Below the pieces are notes generated by a model. That model was not told the origin of the DNA and did not search any database. It was given only the letters and a program-made list of their open reading frames with translations. Of a stretch of 64,000 bases of DNA, positions 3,282-48,376 are shown in pieces (the stretch's first letter is position 1; the number at the start of each line of letters is the position of its first letter). The position numbers and the translations under genes are program-made. Source of the stretch: Patescibacteria group bacterium UBA926 (lineage in GTDB: Bacteria; Patescibacteriota; Doudnabacteria; UBA920); NCBI GenBank assembly GCA_002293685.1, contig DBDS01000006.1:20187-84186 (forward strand). Direction: 5' to 3'.

Positions 3282-3333
3282 AAAGCCCCACGCCAGCTGG
3301 TCCTTACGGACCCATATCAGTTTCCCGATATGA

Positions 3334-3376
3334 CTCGTTAAAGTTGCTGAACGCAGGGTTCAATATCTTTAACGAG
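3334..3376. repeat. Perfect 10-bp inverted repeat (CTCGTTAAAG...CTTTAACGAG) with a 23-bp spacer, about 110 bp from the recombinase stop; candidate att/recombination site
   Basis: Seen directly in the sequence. Large serine recombinases act on roughly 40-50 bp imperfectly palindromic att sites. Confidence 0.3.
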
Positions 3377-3487
3377 TTTTGATTCACCATGCCAGCGTGA
3401 CCGCTGGTTTAGGCTACTTAGTTAATTGTTGAGGTAATTATACTATATTTACGTTATTTATCAATCAGCTAGCTAGGCTGAAAAAGC

Positions 3488-4905: not shown

Positions 4906-6477
4906 CTATTCCACATCAACGTAATCCCGATAGTAAAGCACATCATCATCACTGGGGATACCGCCGACCCACATCATGATTATGGTGCCATCGTCTGCGT
5001 GTTTCTCAAGTGTAGCGTTAATAAGAAGTGAAAAGGCGTCTGCAAGATCATCATGTTTTTCAACTCCAAAGCCTACAAGCTGCTCAATTAGCTTTTCACA
5101 GCCTTGCCGTGGAAACTTAATCAGACCAGACTTGATCGACATCGATGTAAGCGAAAGTCGGGTTCGCTTATCGCCCTTAGGCTTAATGGCTTCTGCTTCA
5201 ACTCCATGAAATTCCAGCATCTGGGGAAGTGCTTCTTGATAAGCTACGCTTTCAACAAATAACGTATCCTGCGAACCTTTCATCACAGTGCTTTTAACAT
5301 TTTTCATCAGATCGACCTGAGCCGGAAAGTTCAGCTTTTGCATTATGGGATTTGGCAGAATGTATATGCGTAACTTGTCACACCTGCTGTATACATGGGC
5401 AAAAACAACTGCTGTGAAATCAGCGGTGTCTTTTGAAGATATGGCAAGGTCAACTCCGGCGTATGTGCCCCGGTACCCTCTATGTTTGTCTCCCGGTAGC
5501 TCGTCATAGTATTGAATCCATTCGGGATATATTACTTGATCATCGCTTGGAATAATTCGAAGCAAATATTCTCGCTGCCACGATATTTCACTGGCAATTT
5601 TTAGTTTTTCTTCTTCAATTTCTTTAACAGTGGGGTACTTTCCCGGCCACAAGCAGTTGTCCTGCTCATCAAGTAATGGATATTGTTTGAACACACCAGA
5701 GGTCCGACTTTGGTTCACTTCTTCCTTAATCCGCATCAGTAGCGAGTCTTCGTGCAGCAGATTACCAACTATTATTAGTCTGCTAGTTCGATCACCGGCA
5801 GGCAAAACTTCGCCACGGAGCCAGTGATAAGTTTTTTCACGTCCTTCCCGGGTCTTAGTGGATTGTACATCTTCAACGTCATCACAAATAATGAGGTCAG
5901 GACGGTATTCATTATGGCGAAGTCCACGAATACTTTGGTCGGTAGAGGCAACTGTGATTCGCGCGCCGTGCTTGCTGAATACCAAAGAGTGCGAGCCCCA
6001 TTCATCACTTTCTTCTTGAAATGGTCCTAAATCGCGTTTGAGTAAGTCATTATCTTCCAGCTCGTTTCGAATGTTCATCATGTGCTGCTTGGCTTGGGCT
6101 TTAGTTTGGCAGAAAATTATGCAAAACTTTTTTTGCTGCTTCCCAAGTATCGACCAAATCGGATAGGCGGTGGTGACCATGGTTGACTTACCAGAGCCAC
6201 GGAATGCCACGATATACAGATTTTCGGTCGGACTTTTTTCGAGGTTGTGAATAATTTCCTTTTGGAAGTCCGCAGTTTCGTACTTCACATAATGGGCGTA
6301 GTAGAAGTGAAAGAAATACAAGAAACTGTCTTTTGTAATGGAAGTTCGCACTAAGCGATCCTTCATCATCCGGTTGACCAACTGGTCGTCAATTATTTTC
6401 ATCGGTTTTCCTTTCGTTAATTTTCTTAATGGACCTGGACTTTGTAATTGCCGCAAGTCGCAGGGCTTGGCGTACAA
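4906..6477 (-). CDS. Phage terminase large subunit (PBSX/XtmB-like)
   Basis: Walker A motif FRGSGKST, then an RNaseH-like nuclease C-terminal domain (AGVDLAIS...DFTAVV). The likely true start is the internal MKIIDD (about 6402), which would give only a short overlap with the upstream HTH gene. Confidence 0.6.
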   Translation of the reverse strand: MYAKPCDLRQLQSPGPLRKLTKGKPMKIIDDQLVNRMMKDRLVRTSITKDSFLYFFHFYYAHYVKYETADFQKEIIHNLEKSPTENLYIVAFRGSGKSTMVTTAYPIWSILGKQQKKFCIIFCQTKAQAKQHMMNIRNELEDNDLLKRDLGPFQEESDEWGSHSLVFSKHGARITVASTDQSIRGLRHNEYRPDLIICDDVEDVQSTKTREGREKTYHWLRGEVLPAGDRTSRLIIVGNLLHEDSLLMRIKEEVNQSRTSGVFKQYPLLDEQDNCLWPGKYPTVKEIEEEKLKIASEISWQREYLLRIIPSDDQVIYPEWIQYYDELPGDKHRGYRGTYAGVDLAISSKDTADFTAVVFAHVYSRCDKLRIYILPNPIMQKLNFPAQVDLMKNVKSTVMKGSQDTLFVESVAYQEALPQMLEFHGVEAEAIKPKGDKRTRLSLTSMSIKSGLIKFPRQGCEKLIEQLVGFGVEKHDDLADAFSLLINATLEKHADDGTIIMMWVGGIPSDDDVLYYRDYVDVE

Positions 6478-6850
6478 TTTTCGCTTGGGACGGCGTAAGA
6501 GCTTCGGATTCTTCTTTTGTAGTTACTTCAATCTTGTCTTTGTAATTGTCGTTTCGATGGCGCAGCCAGAAGCTAATCGCTGACCAGTTTTTTTCCTTGA
6601 TCAGAGTTAATAATTGGCTTTCGCTCATGTCATTAACCAAAGCGACACCTTCGGCTAAAGCCTTGTCCATTTTGCTTGCAAAAGTCTTATCTTCCTTGCG
6701 CCACCTGTACACGCTGTTTCTTGATATGCCTGTTTTTTCACAGGCGACTTGAACAATTGGCACTTTAGCCAATTCCTCAAAAAATTGGTTTTGCAGTTTA
6801 CTTTTCTTCATGGTGTTCGACTTTAGCCTTGATTCCGGTAAAGGACTCAA
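6389..6850 (-). CDS. HTH-domain protein, possible terminase small subunit
   Basis: HTH motif CEKTGISRNSVYRWRK near the N-terminus. Position immediately upstream of terL. Start probably at MKKSKL. Confidence 0.4.
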   Translation of the reverse strand: MSPLPESRLKSNTMKKSKLQNQFFEELAKVPIVQVACEKTGISRNSVYRWRKEDKTFASKMDKALAEGVALVNDMSESQLLTLIKEKNWSAISFWLRHRNDNYKDKIEVTTKEESEALTPSQAKIVRQALRLAAITKSRSIKKINERKTDENN

Positions 6851-9782: not shown

Positions 9783-10724
9783 ATGAGAAAAGCACTTGTA
9801 ATTGGAATTAATGATTATCCTGCCGCCCCATTGACTGGGTGCATTAACGATGCGTCTGCTTTTGCGAACACAATAGAAAAAAATGGAGACGGCTCTCCAA
9901 ATTTTTCAGTAAGACTGGAAACTGATGTACCTACCAAAGCCCAGCTTAAAACCATGATTAAAGAGTTGTTTGATGGTCCTAATGATATATCGTTGCTATA
10001 CTTCTCTGGACATGGTTTTTTAAACGAACTTGGCGGATATATTGTTACGCCGGATTATCAGGAGAATGACGAAGGGGTTTCAATGGATGAAATTTTGACT
10101 ATTGCAAATCAGTCAAAAGCAAAAGATAAAGTTATTATCCTAGACTGTTGTCACTCTGGCGTTTTTGGCTCACCTGCTTTATCAGGCAATGTTTCCGCTC
10201 AGATTTTTGAAGGCGTTGTAGTTTTAACAGCAAGTCGTCCGACCGAAAGCGCAATCGAAGTAAATGGTCACGGAATTTTTACAAATTTATTAATCGATGC
10301 ATTACAGGGAGGAGCTGCGGATCTACGAGGTCACATAACTCCTGGTAGTGTATACGCATATATTGATCAGGCATTAGGAGCTTGGGACCAGAGGCCTGTA
10401 TTTAAAACGAATGTGACTCGATTTACTTCTTTGCGTACTGTAACTCCGCAAGTTCCTACGGAGGTTCTTAGAAAAATAACTGAATACTTTCCTACTGCAG
10501 AGGAAGAGCATGCATTGGATCCTACATACGAATTTGATAATAAAGAAATAGCTATTCCTGAAAAAGTTGCCATAATGAAGGACTTGCAAAAATTTGTCAG
10601 TATAGGATTGGTAGTACCTGTTGGGGAAGAACATATGTACTATGCTGCGCAAAATTCTAAATCTTGCAAGTTGACTGCACTTGGCTATCACTATTGGCGT
10701 TTAGTTAAGGAAAATAAGCTTTAG
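9783..10724 (+). CDS. Caspase/metacaspase-like (peptidase C14) protease with an unknown C-terminal domain of about 130 aa
   Basis: KALVIGINDY...LTGCINDA start, catalytic His in YFSGHGF and catalytic Cys in ILDCCHSG. The ATG lies 2 nt after the TIR gene stop, indicating translational coupling. Confidence 0.8.
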   Translation: MRKALVIGINDYPAAPLTGCINDASAFANTIEKNGDGSPNFSVRLETDVPTKAQLKTMIKELFDGPNDISLLYFSGHGFLNELGGYIVTPDYQENDEGVSMDEILTIANQSKAKDKVIILDCCHSGVFGSPALSGNVSAQIFEGVVVLTASRPTESAIEVNGHGIFTNLLIDALQGGAADLRGHITPGSVYAYIDQALGAWDQRPVFKTNVTRFTSLRTVTPQVPTEVLRKITEYFPTAEEEHALDPTYEFDNKEIAIPEKVAIMKDLQKFVSIGLVVPVGEEHMYYAAQNSKSCKLTALGYHYWRLVKENKL

Positions 10725-15789: not shown

Positions 15790-16251
15790 ATGACAAAACG
15801 GCGACTTCGAATCATTGAGTTCTTAATCATCGGAATTGGTCTCGGTGTGTTTGAAGATTTACTAGCTATTGTTTTAGCTACAGACGCAACAATCAATTTT
15901 CAAATATTATTGGGTGTTGTTGCCGTAGCTGTACCGTTTGCGTTTATAAGTGAAGTGATTGTGGATCACCCAAAATTTTGGGAGAAGATAATCCCGGGTC
16001 TAGCTAGACGAAACGAAGACGCTGTTTCAAAAAAGCGATTGCGAATCCTTGAATTTCTTGTTGTAGGTATTGGTATGGGAATCACGGAAGATTTACTAGC
16101 TGTTCATTTAGCAACAGGCACAAGTCTTAGTGCCGACGTTCTAATTATAGTAGTCGCAGTTGCAATTCCGTTTGCGTTCATTAGCGAGATGGTTGTTGAT
16201 CATCCACGTTTTTGGCAAAATATCTTTCCGAAGCTTAAAAAAATTGCATAA
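15790..16251 (+). CDS. Membrane protein made of two tandem ~70-aa repeats
   Basis: KRRLRIIEFLIIGIGLGVFEDLLAIVLAT...FAFISEVIVDHPKFW is repeated as KKRLRILEFLVVGIGMGITEDLLAVHLAT...FAFISEMVVDHPRFW. Confidence 0.5.
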   Translation: MTKRRLRIIEFLIIGIGLGVFEDLLAIVLATDATINFQILLGVVAVAVPFAFISEVIVDHPKFWEKIIPGLARRNEDAVSKKRLRILEFLVVGIGMGITEDLLAVHLATGTSLSADVLIIVVAVAIPFAFISEMVVDHPRFWQNIFPKLKKIA

Positions 16252-16355
16252 TCCTTTTCTGTCATCCCCGGACCTCTAAATATTTATTTATGTCATCCCC
16301 GGCGCCGTAGGCAACCGGGGATCTTTCATAAAACAAAAGATCCCGGATAGCCCTT

Positions 16356-16503
16356 CGGGCTTCCGGGATGACATTTGTGTGTGTCGGGCTTCCGGGATGA
16401 CATTTGTGTGTGTCGGGCTTCCGGGATGACATTTGTGTGTGTCGGGCTTCATCCCTTCGTTCGTCGTTGGTTGACTTCGGAGGGCTTCCGGGATGACATT
16501 TGT
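16356..16503. repeat. Tandem 29-bp direct repeat (CGGGCTTCCGGGATGACATTTGTGTGTGT), 3 full copies plus 1 degenerate copy; not CRISPR
   Basis: Units at 16356-16384, 16385-16413 and 16414-16442 are contiguous with no spacers. A partial copy lies at 16482-16503. Inverted partial copies (TGTCATCCCCGG) sit at 16257 and 16293. Confidence 0.8.
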
Positions 16504-17525: not shown

Positions 17526-18116
17526 ATGAACATTTTTGTTAAAATTTTAAAGTATTTTTTATTTGCCGTATTGGTGGTTTTAATTTTGAACGTTGGCTTC
17601 ATTTATACCATCGCAAAGAGCCGACCGGAAATTGAACGCGCTGATGCAATTATTGTGTTAGGCGCCGCAATTAATACACCAGCGTTAACAAACCGAACAG
17701 CTGAGGGGTTACGCTTGTATCAAGATCGAAAAGCCGAGGTAATGGTTCTTTCTGGTGGAAAAATTTCTGAAAGCGATATTTCCGAAGCAGAATATATGGA
17801 AAAAGTAATCAATCGATTTAGTGATGAACCTGTTGAATATTTATTAGAAGAAAATTCGGGAACAACTTATGAGAATATAAAAAACTCCCAAGCTAAGCTA
17901 AGAGAAGCGGGGAGAGCTGATAATGGCTCGGTTATAATTGTGAGTGATGAGTTTCATTTAGCTCGCGGAGTTTTATTAGCCAAGCGCGCCGGTTTTGAAA
18001 CAGTTTACTGGAGTGCCCCAGCACCAAATTACTATTCACAAGAACAATTACGTTTTTACTACTTTCGCGAATTCATGGCCATGATAAACTACATCCCTAA
18101 ATTCATTTTTGGGTAA
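17526..18116 (+). CDS. DUF218 (YdcF/SanA/ElyC family) protein
   Basis: N-terminal TM helix, then IVLGAAINTPALTNRTAEGLRLYQDRKA...VLSGG, the DUF218 signature. Confidence 0.65.
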   Translation: MNIFVKILKYFLFAVLVVLILNVGFIYTIAKSRPEIERADAIIVLGAAINTPALTNRTAEGLRLYQDRKAEVMVLSGGKISESDISEAEYMEKVINRFSDEPVEYLLEENSGTTYENIKNSQAKLREAGRADNGSVIIVSDEFHLARGVLLAKRAGFETVYWSAPAPNYYSQEQLRFYYFREFMAMINYIPKFIFG

Positions 18117-18308
18117 ACTTGCATTTTAAGACGGTTTTTGATAGAATAAAATCAACTAAATAACCCAAGACAGTTGGTGGCGAAAGCCCTAAATTTGGCT
18201 AATATAAGCCAAAGCCCACCGAGGAACGAAATGAGCGCTAATTATAGCCTTATATTTTTGACTCGGTACATACCATTAGGTAAGACCGAGTTTTGTGTTT
18301 ACTCACCC

Positions 18309-18381
18309 TGTCATTCTGAGCCCAGCTTGCTGGGTGAAGAATCTTGTTTGAGATCCTTCGGCCGTTGGCCTTAGGATGACA
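18309..18381. repeat. About 73-nt hairpin repeat element (copy A) with TGTCATTCTGA...AGGATGACA termini
   Basis: The termini form an inverted repeat. The internal GAATCTTGT-T-AGATCCTTC segment is conserved with copy B at 19200-19272. Confidence 0.6.
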
Positions 18382-18439
18382 ATCACTGGTTTTTAGTTTC
18401 ACCCTGTTAAATGCCGCGAAGCGGCTCTTGCCTTAAGCA

Positions 18440-18670
18440 AGATTTAAGAGGGTAAAAGGTCGAAATTTCATAGCACCGAACCATCTGGCTTTGTCAGTGG
18501 TGAGGTGGCGAAGGAAAGGGGAGGCAGATTCGCGTAGCGAATCGTTGGAAGGGTGCGGGTTAAGTCCAAACTTGGTTTGGACTGCTAACCGCGGAAAACC
18601 CCTTCCGAGAAGGTTAATCCTTTGGGATTCACTCCCAAAGGTGCTAACCGGGTTTTCCCCTCCAAAGGTA
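18440..18670 (+). promoter_or_regulatory. Highly structured leader upstream of rplJ; candidate ribosomal protein L10 autoregulatory leader
   Basis: Three perfect hairpins (GATTCGC-gta-GCGAATC; GTCCAAAC-ttg-GTTTGGAC; CCTTTGGG-attcact-CCCAAAGG). Long-range complementarity CGGAAAACCC/GGGTTTTCCC. Directly abuts the rplJ start. Overlapping ORFs look spurious. Confidence 0.3.
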
Positions 18671-18674
18671 TTTT

Positions 18675-19190
18675 ATGGCAAAAACAAGGCAACAAAAGGA
18701 ACAAGATTTGCAGGAATTAGTAGATCGTCTAAAGGACGCGAAGAGTGTTGTATTAGCCGACTACCGCGGTACAACAGTGAAAGAAATTGACTCTTTCCGC
18801 CGCGCACTTGGCAACGAAGCTGTAACAAGCAAAGTTTACAAGATTTCTTTGATCAAGAAAGCTTTCGAAGCAAATGGCATCGATGCATCAAGTCTTGATT
18901 ATAAAACTCCAGTAATTCTTTCTGTTTCTCAAGACGATGAAGTCGCTCCGGCGCGCATCGCAAAGAATATTTCAAAAGATGTAAAGACAATCAGCATCTT
19001 AAGTGGTGTACTCGATGGTCAATTTGCATCTCGCGAACAAGTGTTGGCGTTAGCTGACTTGCCAAGCAAAGATGAACTTCGTGCCAAAGTTGTTGGTACG
19101 ATTAACGCTCCAGTTTCTGGATTCGTAAATGTTCTTGCTGGTAATCTCCGTGGCTTGATTAATGTCCTTCAAGCTGCATCTCAGAAGTAG
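18675..19190 (+). CDS. rplJ: 50S ribosomal protein L10
   Basis: DLQELVDRLKDAKSVVLADYRGTTVKEIDSFRRAL is L10-like. Followed by rplL. Confidence 0.9.
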   Translation: MAKTRQQKEQDLQELVDRLKDAKSVVLADYRGTTVKEIDSFRRALGNEAVTSKVYKISLIKKAFEANGIDASSLDYKTPVILSVSQDDEVAPARIAKNISKDVKTISILSGVLDGQFASREQVLALADLPSKDELRAKVVGTINAPVSGFVNVLAGNLRGLINVLQAASQK

Positions 19191-19199
19191 AAAACCTTC

Positions 19200-19272
19200 T
19201 GTCATTCTGACCCTAAGCTTTCCGAAGGGGAGGAATCTTGTATTCAGATCCTTCACTGCGTTCAGGATGACA
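19200..19272. repeat. About 73-nt hairpin repeat element (copy B) in the rplJ-rplL spacer
   Basis: Same termini (TGTCATTCTGA...AGGATGACA), same length and same conserved core as copy A. Confidence 0.6.
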
Positions 19273-19301
19273 GGAAATAGCATAATTAATTATTTATAAA
19301 T

Positions 19302-19706
19302 ATGTCAGAAGAAAATAAGACAGTTGAAGTTCCTGCAAAGTTTGCTGACTTAGTAGGTTCTATCGAAAAGCTTTCCGTTTTGGAACTTTCCGAATTAGTT
19401 AAAGTATTAGAAGAAAAGTTTGGTGTATCCGCTGCCGCTCCTATGATGATGGCTGGTGGACCAGCTGCTGGCGGTGCTGCCGCAGCAGAAGAAAAAGATG
19501 AATTCAGTGTAGAATTGACATCTGCTGGTGAAAGCAAAATCAACGTGATCAAAGTTGTTCGCGAAGTTACCGGTCTTGGCTTGAAAGAAGCTAAGGATAT
19601 GGTAGATGGCGCTCCACAAGTTGTTAAAGAAAACGCTCCAAAGGCAGAAGCTGAAGAGCTAAAGAAGAAGCTTGAAGAAGCTGGTGGTACAGTAACTCTT
19701 AAATAA
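19302..19706 (+). CDS. rplL: 50S ribosomal protein L7/L12
   Basis: N-terminal dimerisation domain, Ala/Gly/Glu hinge, and a C-terminal domain ([32 protein letters not shown]). Confidence 0.9.
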
Positions 19707-19710
19707 TGTC

Positions 19711-19762
19711 ATTCCGGACTTGATCCGGAATCTAAAAAAGACCTCCGTTGGGGGTCTTTTTT
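19711..19762 (+). terminator. Truncated TGTCATTC-family hairpin (ATTCCGGA-cttg-TCCGGAAT) followed by a rho-independent terminator (GACCTCC-gttg-GGGGGTC plus T6)
   Basis: Both seen directly. Terminates the rplJL transcript. Confidence 0.6.
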
Positions 19763-19780
19763 GTTGGCAATATGGTAGTC

Positions 19781-20011
19781 CTATTGGTTTGCACGGTCTG
19801 CAATTTCTTTGAAAAACTTCTTCCATCTATCAACTTGATTTTGAGCTTCAATAGTTCTAGGGCCTATGAAAGGTCTCCCATCCCATCCTTCTGATTTACC
19901 AGCCCATGCTCCTGGAGCAATTTTTGTCCATCCAGCCTCGATTAATCTTTCTTCTTGTTGCTGTGCTTTCTCCTGTCGCTTCTTTTCTCGGTAAGCTCTT
20001 CCCATATTCAA
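19781..20011 (-). CDS. Hypothetical small basic protein
   Basis: 76-aa ORF with a 19-nt gap from the upstream gene on the minus strand. Confidence 0.4.
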   Translation of the reverse strand: MNMGRAYREKKRQEKAQQQEERLIEAGWTKIAPGAWAGKSEGWDGRPFIGPRTIEAQNQVDRWKKFFKEIADRANQ

Positions 20012-34573: not shown

Positions 34574-34816
34574 GTGTACTATTTTTATATCCTACAATGC
34601 AAAGACAATTCGTTGTACTGTGGGTATACCACAGACTTAAAACAGAGAGAGCAGGAGCATAATCTTGGACTAGGCTCAAAATATGTTCGCTCTAAAGGCG
34701 GAGGAAAAATAGTCTACAGTGAAAAATTTAAATCTCGCTCCGAAGCTTTAAAACGCGAAGCCTTAATTAAGACTTGGACAAGACAGAAAAAATTACAACT
34801 TCTGGTAACGAAATAA
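34574..34816 (+). CDS. GIY-YIG nuclease-domain protein (UPF0213/YhbQ-like)
   Basis: MYYFYILQCKDNSLYCGYTTDLKQREQEHN matches the GIY-YIG motif. Confidence 0.7.
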   Translation: MYYFYILQCKDNSLYCGYTTDLKQREQEHNLGLGSKYVRSKGGGKIVYSEKFKSRSEALKREALIKTWTRQKKLQLLVTK

Positions 34817-40648: not shown

Positions 40649-40736
40649 CTTCAACCCGTTCGATTCCTCTATAATCATTACCAAAGTAAAAACACCACTA
40701 ACGTGGTGTCCTTACTTTGGTAGCGCTACGGGGAAT
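40649..40736. repeat. 88-bp direct repeat copy 1, holding a truncated tRNA-Glu 3' end plus 69 bp of tRNA-downstream flank (including its terminator hairpin)
   Basis: Identical to 40849-40936 except one C/T difference (40701 versus 40901). Offset is exactly 200 bp. Confidence 0.85.
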
Positions 40737-40848: not shown

Positions 40849-40936
40849 CTTCAACCCGTTCGATTCCTCTATAATCATTACCAAAGTAAAAACACCACTA
40901 ATGTGGTGTCCTTACTTTGGTAGCGCTACGGGGAAT
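40849..40936. repeat. 88-bp direct repeat copy 2, overlapping the 3' 19 nt of the intact tRNA-Glu
   Basis: See copy 1. The two copies are separated by a 112-bp hairpin-rich unique segment. Confidence 0.85.
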
Positions 40937-48194: not shown

Positions 48195-48210
48195 TTCAAT
48201 AAATGAAAAA

Positions 48211-48330
48211 AGAATCCTCTGAAGCCCGTCAGTAGAGATAAGAATCCCCCGGAAGCCCCGCAATAGAGACAAGAACCCCCGGAAGCCCCGCAATAGAGAC
48301 AAGAACCCCCGGAAGCCCGCAGGGCTATCC
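48211..48330. repeat. Tandem 30-31-bp direct repeat (AGAA(T/C)CCCCCGGAAGCCCCGCAATAGAGACA), about 3.5 copies; not CRISPR
   Basis: Contiguous units at 48211, 48241, 48272 and 48302 without spacers. Shares the CCCGGAAGCCC core, in reverse orientation, with the array at 16356-16503. Confidence 0.8.
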
Positions 48331-48376
48331 GGGGTCTGGATCCCGGGTCTTCCGCCCGGGATTTCTATTTAGGAAT

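Follow-up and report, generated by a model that had tools for sequence, protein, structure and literature searches.

The closest described relatives of the elements discussed here are the NTS repeats of Neisseria, together with the small nuclease that acts on them. The NTS repeat, CGTCATTCCCGCGMAVGCGGGAATCYRG, includes the older dRS3 palindrome. Its nuclease is SsnA, a GIY-YIG protein of 94 amino acids that binds NTS as single-stranded DNA (ssDNA) and nicks it a few nucleotides (nt) upstream (Chenal et al., 2025, PMC11893778). Here, that system is compared with a set of hairpin repeats found in DNA from Patescibacteria group bacterium UBA926, a member of the Doudnabacteria known from a metagenome-assembled genome. 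The stretch analysed, called the window throughout, is 64,000 nt in length (assembly GCA_002293685.1, contig DBDS01000006.1, positions 20,187 to 84,186); all coordinates count from its first letter. The window carries three inverted pairs of hairpin arms, called A, B, and C, and a single arm that follows the ribosomal protein gene rplL. These are most probably hairpin repeats of the same class as NTS and the “Ssn-related motifs” (SRM), similar to repetitive extragenic palindromic (REP) sequences, folding in ssDNA and recognised by small GIY-YIG nucleases of the Ssn type.

The sequence features that SsnA uses offer a direct basis for comparison. Cleavage depends most on the three bases immediately 5′ of the palindrome, GTC, and binding most on the C directly 3′ of it; the loop can be replaced or extended (PMC11893778). 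SsnA acts neither on double-stranded DNA nor on RNA nor on the reverse strand, and it does not bind RNA (PMC11893778). Genes of the ssn family typically have SRM on their flanks, 19% of the SRM-rich genomes are without an Ssn homologue, and membership of the family was set at E < 1e-10 to SsnA with 75% coverage (PMC11893778).

Hairpin arms arranged as inverted pairs

Two of the pairs lie at the ribosomal protein genes rplJ and rplL, and are closely alike. Copy A (18309-18381) and copy B (19200-19272) are each 73 nt in length. They share four blocks without a mismatch, TGTCATTCTGA (11/11), GAATCTTGT (9/9), AGATCCTTC (9/9), and AGGATGACA (9/9), and 59 of the 78 columns of their alignment are identical (76%); the inner hairpins have diverged, while no difference is seen in the outer blocks or the linker. 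A search of the window for GTCATYC-N30-60-GRATGAC returns matches at 18310-18380 and 19201-19271 only, where shuffling leads one to expect 0.00. The original prediction, made from the sequence alone, had held that A and B are equal in length and share conserved blocks, and in this it was correct. It had also seen in each a single hairpin with imperfect terminal inverted repeats. The inverted ends are indeed there; each “repeat,” however, is an arm that folds upon itself, with two such arms in every element.

This is apparent when every TGTCAT(T/C)C is listed on both strands. Each 73-nt element then resolves into two inverted arms joined by a linker of 8-9 nt. The arm consists of GTC, followed by AT(T/C)CT-GA, a small hairpin (usually N1N2-GNA-N2'N1'), GA-AG(A/G)AT, and a final C. 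In pair A, which starts 3 nt past the end of the match to the L10 leader, the plus-strand arm (18309-18343) is TGTCATTCTGA-GCCCAGCTTGCTGGGT-GAAGAATC; after the linker TTGTTTGA (8 nt) comes the minus-strand arm (18352-18381), TGTCATCCTAA-GGCCAACGGCC-GAAGGATC. Here, longer hairpins replace the mini-hairpin that is usual in the family. Pair B occupies the spacer between rplJ and rplL. Its plus-strand arm (19200-19237), TGTCATTCTGA-CCCT..AGGG-GAGGAATC, is joined by the linker TTGTATTCA to a minus-strand arm (19247-19272) of canonical form, TGTCATCCTGA-ACGCAGT-GAAGGATC.

Pair C (16291-16373) is a stem variant, with a CCCCGG stem. Its plus-strand arm (16291-16323), TGTCATCCCCGG..CCGGGGATC, and its minus-strand arm (16339-16373), TGTCATCCCGGAAGCCCGAAGGGCTATCCGGGATC, are separated by a linker of 15 nt. 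The lowest-energy ssDNA folds of A and C are each two separate arm hairpins, that of C having an energy of -27.3 kcal/mol (z = -5.9). The single arm, TGTCATTCCGGACTTGATCCGGAATC, lies on the plus strand at 19707-19732, past the stop codon of rplL and ahead of its terminator, and parses as TGTCATTCCGGA-CTTGA-TCCGGAATC; this is the truncated relative that had been predicted to follow rplL.

Counting the two arms of each pair and the single arm, the window holds seven complete arms, plus half-arms, and none is inside a long open frame. All seven begin with (T)GTC-AT, and every window arm ends with ..G(A/G)AT-C; degenerate relics near 48.3 kb, described below, are without the GTC. A relaxed arm detector, written after the published SRM string had failed in the window and run with resampling controls, finds nine matches in the window against 0.11 expected. 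Applied to 893 kb (the window and related loci, mostly from bacteria of the candidate phyla radiation, CPR), it finds 49 arms against 3.2 expected.

The same arms beside Ssn homologues

The tie between these arms and a nuclease comes from other loci, which are cited here by L numbers. Among the matches listed from a scan for the pair pattern, described in the next section, a small GIY-YIG gene is present in 4 of 120 loci, and three of the four genes lie no more than 50 nt from the pair. The proteins encoded by these genes, and that of L068, a CPR metagenome locus, share 41-47% identity along their whole length with the SsnA orthologue of N. gonorrhoeae. In L168, L177, L181, and L068, arms of the CTGA type (or a related type) stand on both sides of the GIY-YIG gene, within ~150 nt; in L200, an arm stands on one side only, 16 nt away. 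Because the same arm type flanks Ssn homologues elsewhere, a subset of these homologues is predicted, judged from sequence, to have the arm type of the window as its cognate repeat, and this arm type falls outside the published motif definition.

The query sequences for GIY-YIG proteins served as probes only; their matches were then checked against Pfam, the PDB, and the gonococcal locus. The small GIY-YIG proteins were classed by their homology to the gonococcal SsnA orthologue, whose gene is flanked by canonical NTS, and NCBIfam returned no informative family for them. The gonococcal locus served also as a control for the code that searches for the SRM string. This code finds eight SRM sites flanking the ssnA orthologue, of which seven are exact NTS; among the seven are three inverted pairs of ~108 nt each. 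In this locus (L209, NZ_CP119142.1 1880219-1883473), the PLSDB table has no annotation for the N. gonorrhoeae ssnA orthologue with its NTS flanks. Two of the “plasmid” records in PLSDB are chromosomes of N. gonorrhoeae, 2.17 Mb in size.

A family found in many phyla

Species-representative genomes were scanned for TGTCATTCTGA-N35-65-AGGATGACA. At least 120 loci were found, with ~34 chance matches estimated for the whole collection. The pair matches listed span Bacteroidota, Clostridia, Proteobacteria, Acidobacteriota, Nitrospirota, Chloroflexota, Omnitrophota, Deinococcota, several CPR groups, and others. Among the matches listed, the two bases that precede AGGATGACA, both of them outside the search pattern, are T (132 of 133) and C (129 of 133), and an internal GRATC..GATYC is present in 104 of 135 pairs. 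Because positions outside the pattern are also conserved, the scan matches are taken to be homologous, and not the product of chance. The consensus of the pairs, again among the matches listed, is TGTCATTCTGAGCGAAGCGAAGAATC - linker - GATCCTTCGCTTCGCTCAGGATGACA, and several of the contigs listed carry two or three near-identical pairs, linker included. The pair therefore appears to be copied as a unit.

Within the family, arms parse as TGTCAT(T/C)CTGA-X-GAAG(A/G)ATC, where X is 7 nt long in 134 of 221 arms. The commonest of these 7-nt inner loops is GCGAAGC (28 of 134), and 106 of the 134 have the form of a GNA triloop (N1N2-GNA-N2'N1'). Two or more closing pairs are present in 78% of the inner hairpins, against 8% after shuffling. 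When 46 distinct arms are compared, 99.1% of cells pair, a score reached by none of 500 shuffles, and compensatory change is seen at three base pairs (UA/CG 23:21, GC/AU 27:14, CG/UA 35:5).

As for their location, a long open frame encloses 22% of the pairs, compared with 79% of random segments. No target-site duplication of 7 nt or more was found in 135 flank pairs, A and B included and the others among the matches listed; shorter matches between these flanks are few, with two at 5 nt where the controls average 0.17. Copy A lies between ..ACTCACCC and ATCACTGG.., copy B between ..AACCTTC and GGAAATAG... A search of the pair flanks for a conserved insertion target found none, save for a depletion of G 4-6 nt upstream. 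CTGA-type arm sequences in the full-text literature gave chance primer matches only.

Most pairs (those of L012, L027, L037, L080, and L008, A, B, and those of the scan set) join an ATTCT..AGAAT arm to an ATCCT..AGGAT arm. Were the two arms of such a mixed pair to pair with each other, the duplex would hold a T-G and an A-C mismatch, which would favour two hairpins over one long palindrome. Among loci that were not selected by the pattern, the mixed type was counted by eye in about 6 of 8 pairs, a number that is not significant alone.

Insertion into the rplJL operon

The local gene order is ppa (minus strand), a DNA_binding_1 gene, a DUF218 gene, rplJ (18675-19190), rplL (19302-19706), and two unannotated genes on the minus strand. 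A RplJ protein identical to that of the window is found in GCA_002430785.1 and in contigs from sludge and bioreactors, and its homologues with 98% and 81% identity come from sources that name them Doudnabacteria. The L10 (rplJ) leader lies at 18146-18306 on the plus strand (Rfam RF00557, 51.4 bits against a gathering score of 44); it provides context, and lies outside the element family. Copy A is found directly past the terminator-like stem and U-tract of this leader, and copy B between the rplJ stop codon and the ribosome-binding site of rplL. Two open reading frames (ORFs), 18174..18374 (+) and 18250..18402 (-), overlie the Rfam leader and copy A and, as had been predicted, should be regarded as spurious and not as genes.

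A comparison of orthologous rplJ-rplL spacers had been proposed as a check on whether the element was inserted. The spacer is 111 nt long in the window, against 18-43 nt in five close relatives that are without the element. These empty sites are in L086 (RplJ identity 85%, spacer 18 nt), L088 (82%, 36 nt), L009 (77%, 40 nt), L006 (76%, 39 nt), and L018 (72%, 43 nt). If the 73 nt of B are subtracted from the window spacer, 38 nt are left, and these align with the 39-nt spacer of L006. The interval between the DUF218 gene and rplJ is 558 nt in the window against 211 nt in L086. The excess is made up by copy A, by a hairpin of 55 nt at 18396-18452, and by ~200 nt of sequence at 18462-18663. The sequence of the L10 leader itself is kept in L086, L087, and L088, where the leaders continue without copy A. 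Because the spacers and leader of close relatives lack the element, the comparison supports the view that A and B are insertions, and not ancestral leader or spacer sequence. The elements thereby account for an oversized rplJ leader and rplJ-rplL spacer.

Other lineages have arms of their own in these places. In L008 (RplJ 69%), a different pair, with the arm TGTCATTCTGAGCGAAGCGAAGTATC, occupies the same point in the spacer, 9 nt past the stop codon. After rplL, L087 has an arm at the same position as the single arm of the window, with a different and equally complementary stem (ATTCCCGTG-AAA-ACGGGAAT), and L086 and L088 have no arm there. In the Doudnabacteria lineages L010-L013, arms stand just upstream of rplJ. 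Copies in the rplJL operon are most likely tolerated passengers.

The operon holds other additions as well. The segment at 18396-18452 is a branched hairpin of 55 nt inserted into the rplJ leader; that at 18462-18663 is a GC-rich insertion of ~200 nt with several hairpins, whose lowest-energy RNA fold has -90 kcal/mol. Both are absent from L086, L087, and L088, and BLAST of the two against all loci collected found no further copies. Within the larger segment, at 18527-18543, is a dRS3-like palindrome, ATTCGC-GTA-GCGAAT-C. In L087 (RplJ 81%), the rplJ-rplL spacer contains another hairpin element (10517-10636), 120 nt long with GGGGAGG/CCCCTCC stems. The intergenic regions of the rplJL operon have been colonised repeatedly.

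Half-arms and arrays

Fragments of arms are also present in the window. The terminus GGATGACA occurs nine times against 1.4 expected, and six of the nine are within 16260-16498, around pair C. An isolated 5′ half-arm, TGTCATCCCCGGAC, lies at 16260-16273 on the plus strand. On the minus strand, at 16355-16450, is a tandem array of 3.3 copies of a 29-nt unit, CACACACAAATGTCATCCCGGAAGCCCGA, made of half-arms of pair C with ~10 nt of 5′ flank; one further half-arm follows at 16480-16498 (-). The original prediction had the same terminus ending every unit of a “16.4 kb tandem array.” The array is 96 nt long, and 16.4 kb is its location. The number of its units differs between strains in which RplJ is identical, being three in the window, L001, L002, and L005, and two in L003.

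Degenerate relatives are found at 48210-48370, where 3.6 copies of a 30-nt half-arm unit are followed by two palindromes without a 5′ GTC (48305-48362). These palindromes, ACCCCGG..CCGGGGT-C and ATCCCGGG..CCCGGGAT-C, are GC-rich and resemble the arms of pair C; one repeat pair links this region to 16338-16367 at 93% complementarity. The array and its palindromes lie between a gene for an HtrA-like protease and recR. Both half-arm arrays are built alike, with the 5′ half of a hairpin and ~10 nt repeated, and a full hairpin at the end.

Alternative explanations

The original prediction spoke of one family resembling miniature inverted-repeat transposable elements (MITEs). A single dispersed family of inverted repeats, inserted where it is found, is what the analysis supports; the classical MITE is not. 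A classical MITE is a non-autonomous derivative of an insertion sequence (IS), moved by a DDE transposase that cuts and pastes it via terminal inverted repeats. Elements of ~73 nt with imperfect inverted termini (TGTCATTCT / AGGATGACA), present in several copies and differing in presence between relatives, are consistent with one. Their “repeats,” however, are complete arms that fold by themselves, occurring also alone (19707-19732) and as arrays of half-arms; their flanks are without target-site duplications; and elsewhere the gene next to arms of this type encodes a GIY-YIG nuclease. Moreover, Pfam finds no transposase family above threshold in the 30 window ORFs scanned (29 distinct), the nearest being a sub-threshold HTH_Tnp_1_2 on 6389..6850. 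The classical MITE is close to excluded. The same scan returned no match to Y1_Tnp, which speaks against another possibility, a REP/REPIN system that is served by a RAYT (a Y1 transposase of the IS200/IS605 type) and not by a GIY-YIG nuclease. The short hairpin with its conserved 5′ flank, the inverted pairs, the clusters, the intergenic placement, and the missing target-site duplications are all what such a system would show. Its flank, however, would be GTAG, where the arms here have GTC-AT, and in five independent loci the gene so flanked is an Ssn-like GIY-YIG gene. A RAYT is very improbable.

A transcribed hairpin, acting in processing or stability of the message, had been offered as the other original interpretation. 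Here, selection at the RNA level would maintain a structure that regulates or processes the rplJ-rplL transcript. Copies A and B do lie within the transcribed leader and spacer, the RNA fold of A is one long hairpin (-35.6 kcal/mol, z = -5.0), that of B has -28.8 kcal/mol (z = -3.0), and the L008 pair and the arms of L010-L013 recur at the same operon. Yet the element is missing from that operon in the closest relatives, and is found in many phyla in unrelated intergenic contexts. Rfam has no family over the elements (the window at gathering thresholds, 18100-19800 at E <= 10, and 17 canonical-pair loci were searched), and an element so nearly palindromic has no strand specificity. The GNA triloops of the arms are closed by C-G, as in d(GCGAAGC), which is a motif typical of DNA mini-hairpins. 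SsnA, moreover, does not bind RNA (PMC11893778). A and B would be co-transcribed and would form stable RNA hairpins, and nothing points to selection for an RNA role; an RNA function is improbable, and this part of the original prediction found no positive support. A kinship with NTS/SRM repeats and GIY-YIG Ssn nucleases had not been recognised in that prediction.

The assignment to the NTS/SRM class itself has to contend with several observations that weigh against it. The published SRM string, HGTCWYN(0-2)YYVSBRHN(0-5)WNVSBRGN(0-2)RNCYNB, has no match in the window, where 0.18 are expected; followed by hand, the single arm at 19707-19732 misses at one position, and an arm of the CTGA type cannot match at all. 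No Ssn-type gene is found in the 64-kb window, and none was seen in ~190 kb of collected DNA of the Doudnabacteria class. In the conserved CTGA/GAAG box, one arm of A and one arm of B each have a substitution, and A and B may, with one such arm apiece, be decaying relics. These observations lead to the remaining alternative, in which the arms are true members of the SRM class, the cognate nuclease has been lost from a reduced genome, and the copies persist as neutral, slowly decaying insertions. The divergence of the inner hairpins, with overall identity at 76%, would follow, and SRM-rich genomes without an Ssn homologue are on record (PMC11893778). Against orphan relics, the outer blocks and the linker of A and B are perfectly kept while the inner parts have diverged, which points to constraint or to a recent conversion; strains of identical RplJ still differ in the 29-nt array; and the window covers ~7% of an 850-kb genome. 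That the window holds orphans is possible, if rather unlikely.

Other GIY-YIG genes and other features of the window

The window does contain one GIY-YIG gene, at 34574-34816 on the plus strand (80 amino acids, GTG start; Pfam PF01541, E = 2.3e-20). Its product matches the PDB entries 1ywl and 1zg2, both named UPF0213, with E = 5e-18 and 1e-16. Against the gonococcal SsnA orthologue it has 35% identity and E ~1e-9 in a database of 10 sequences, which is below the family criterion of the published work, and no arms lie within 600 nt of the gene. As a partner for the arms it is unsupported, being of the UPF0213 type and not of the Ssn type, without arms nearby; it is an unproven candidate at best.

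A second type of small GIY-YIG gene, also not Ssn-like, was encountered in other CPR loci (L069 7859-8260; L077 1450-1960; L034 17139-17460; L085 6494-6874). These genes adjoin a gene for tRNA-Glu or tRNA-Gln, and not arms; a duplicated piece of the tRNA follows beyond the gene in L069 and L077. This arrangement suggests a mobile GIY-YIG cassette targeted to tRNA genes.

Elsewhere in the window, an unannotated ORF of 153 amino acids (15790-16251), just 5′ of pair C, has an internal tandem duplication (15794-16230), in which segments of 96 and 81 nt each recur 234 nt downstream at ~70% identity. An 88-nt direct repeat (40649-40736 and 40849-40936, 99% identical, 200 nt apart) comprises the 3′ 19 nt of tRNA-Glu(CTC) and 69 nt downstream, including a 44-nt palindrome; this looks like an attachment site or the scar of an integration. 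A full-length match to the LOOT RNA motif lies at 3299-3415 on the minus strand (Rfam RF03000, 79.4 bits against a gathering score of 46.4).

Implications and comparison with known systems

The GTCAT ends of an inverted pair point outward. Because SsnA acts on the forward strand of ssDNA only, and because the arms of a pair are inverted, each strand would present one forward, cleavable arm. By analogy, an Ssn-type enzyme may act on the window copies in this organism, and might spread the pairs in the manner in which RAYT transposases are thought to spread REPINs. Taken further, the CTGA-type pair could be a REPIN-like, non-autonomous mobile element of many phyla, copied via ssDNA by Ssn GIY-YIG nucleases. 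It would then be the GIY-YIG counterpart of REP/RAYT, missed by the published definition of SRM and still reshaping very small CPR genomes, including the leaders and spacers of ribosomal protein operons. This larger proposal is tentative, and more doubtful than the assignment of the window repeats to their class.

Some consequences are closer at hand. The class of hairpin repeats associated with Ssn appears to be broader than the published search string. The arm type with the CTGA box and the GNA mini-hairpin is usually found in inverted pairs, is near-identical from Bacteroidota and Clostridia to CPR bacteria, and adjoins Ssn homologues. A new type of arm implies, in each case, Ssn enzymes of new specificity for ssDNA. 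Orthologous sites that are empty in one genome and filled in another, without target-site duplication, show directly that repeats of this class turn over. Such sites offer a concrete case for the question of how such repeats are copied.

Among the better-known small repeats, MITEs of the Correia type are likewise small, intergenic, bounded by inverted termini, and co-transcribed with neighbouring genes. The elements of the window differ from these, having neither a target-site duplication nor a parent with a DDE transposase, and being built of arms that are autonomous hairpins, found also singly. The REP/BIME/REPIN-RAYT systems are closer in design. They too have a conserved 5′ flank, an inverted pair as the copied unit, clusters and arrays, and no target-site duplication, and they too have a single domesticated nuclease gene flanked by repeats. 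Here, however, the flank is GTC and not GTAG, and the nuclease is a GIY-YIG protein and not an HUH/Y1 transposase.

With dRS3 and the intergenic mosaic elements of Neisseria, the likeness lies in the 20-bp core, ATTCCC-N8-GGGAAT, which brackets short intergenic blocks; the single arm of the window is ATTCCGGA-N5-TCCGGAAT. dRS3 was, however, defined without oriented flanks, and the elements of the window, which belong to a distant phylum, are not mosaics but compact pairs 73-83 nt in length. Mini-hairpins of the d(GCGAAGC) type were reportedly described in DNA by Hirao and co-workers in the 1990s. The commonest inner loop of the present family is exactly this sequence, though here it forms the inner part of a longer stem, which is conserved and has tandem GA/GA steps.

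The nearest system remains NTS/SRM. Both have an oriented hairpin, with GTC directly 5′ and C directly 3′ of an AT(T/C)C..G(A/G)AT palindrome; both are intergenic and present in multiple copies; in both, arms often form inverted pairs, and arms flank small single-domain GIY-YIG genes, which for the present arm type lie in other bacteria and are 41-47% identical to the gonococcal SsnA orthologue. They differ in the stem: that of this family is ATTCT-GA..GA-AGAAT, around a GNA mini-hairpin whose length varies, and that of NTS is ATTCCCGCG-MAV-GCGGGAAT. They differ also in the host, which here is a member of the Doudnabacteria, within the CPR; the words “CPR,” “Candidate,” and “Patescibacteria” are absent from the main text of PMC11893778. 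The elements are best filed as a variant of the Ssn-related repeats, with the CTGA box and GNA mini-hairpin, arranged as REPIN-like inverted pairs. The finding is an extension of the system described in 2025, and not a new kind of system.

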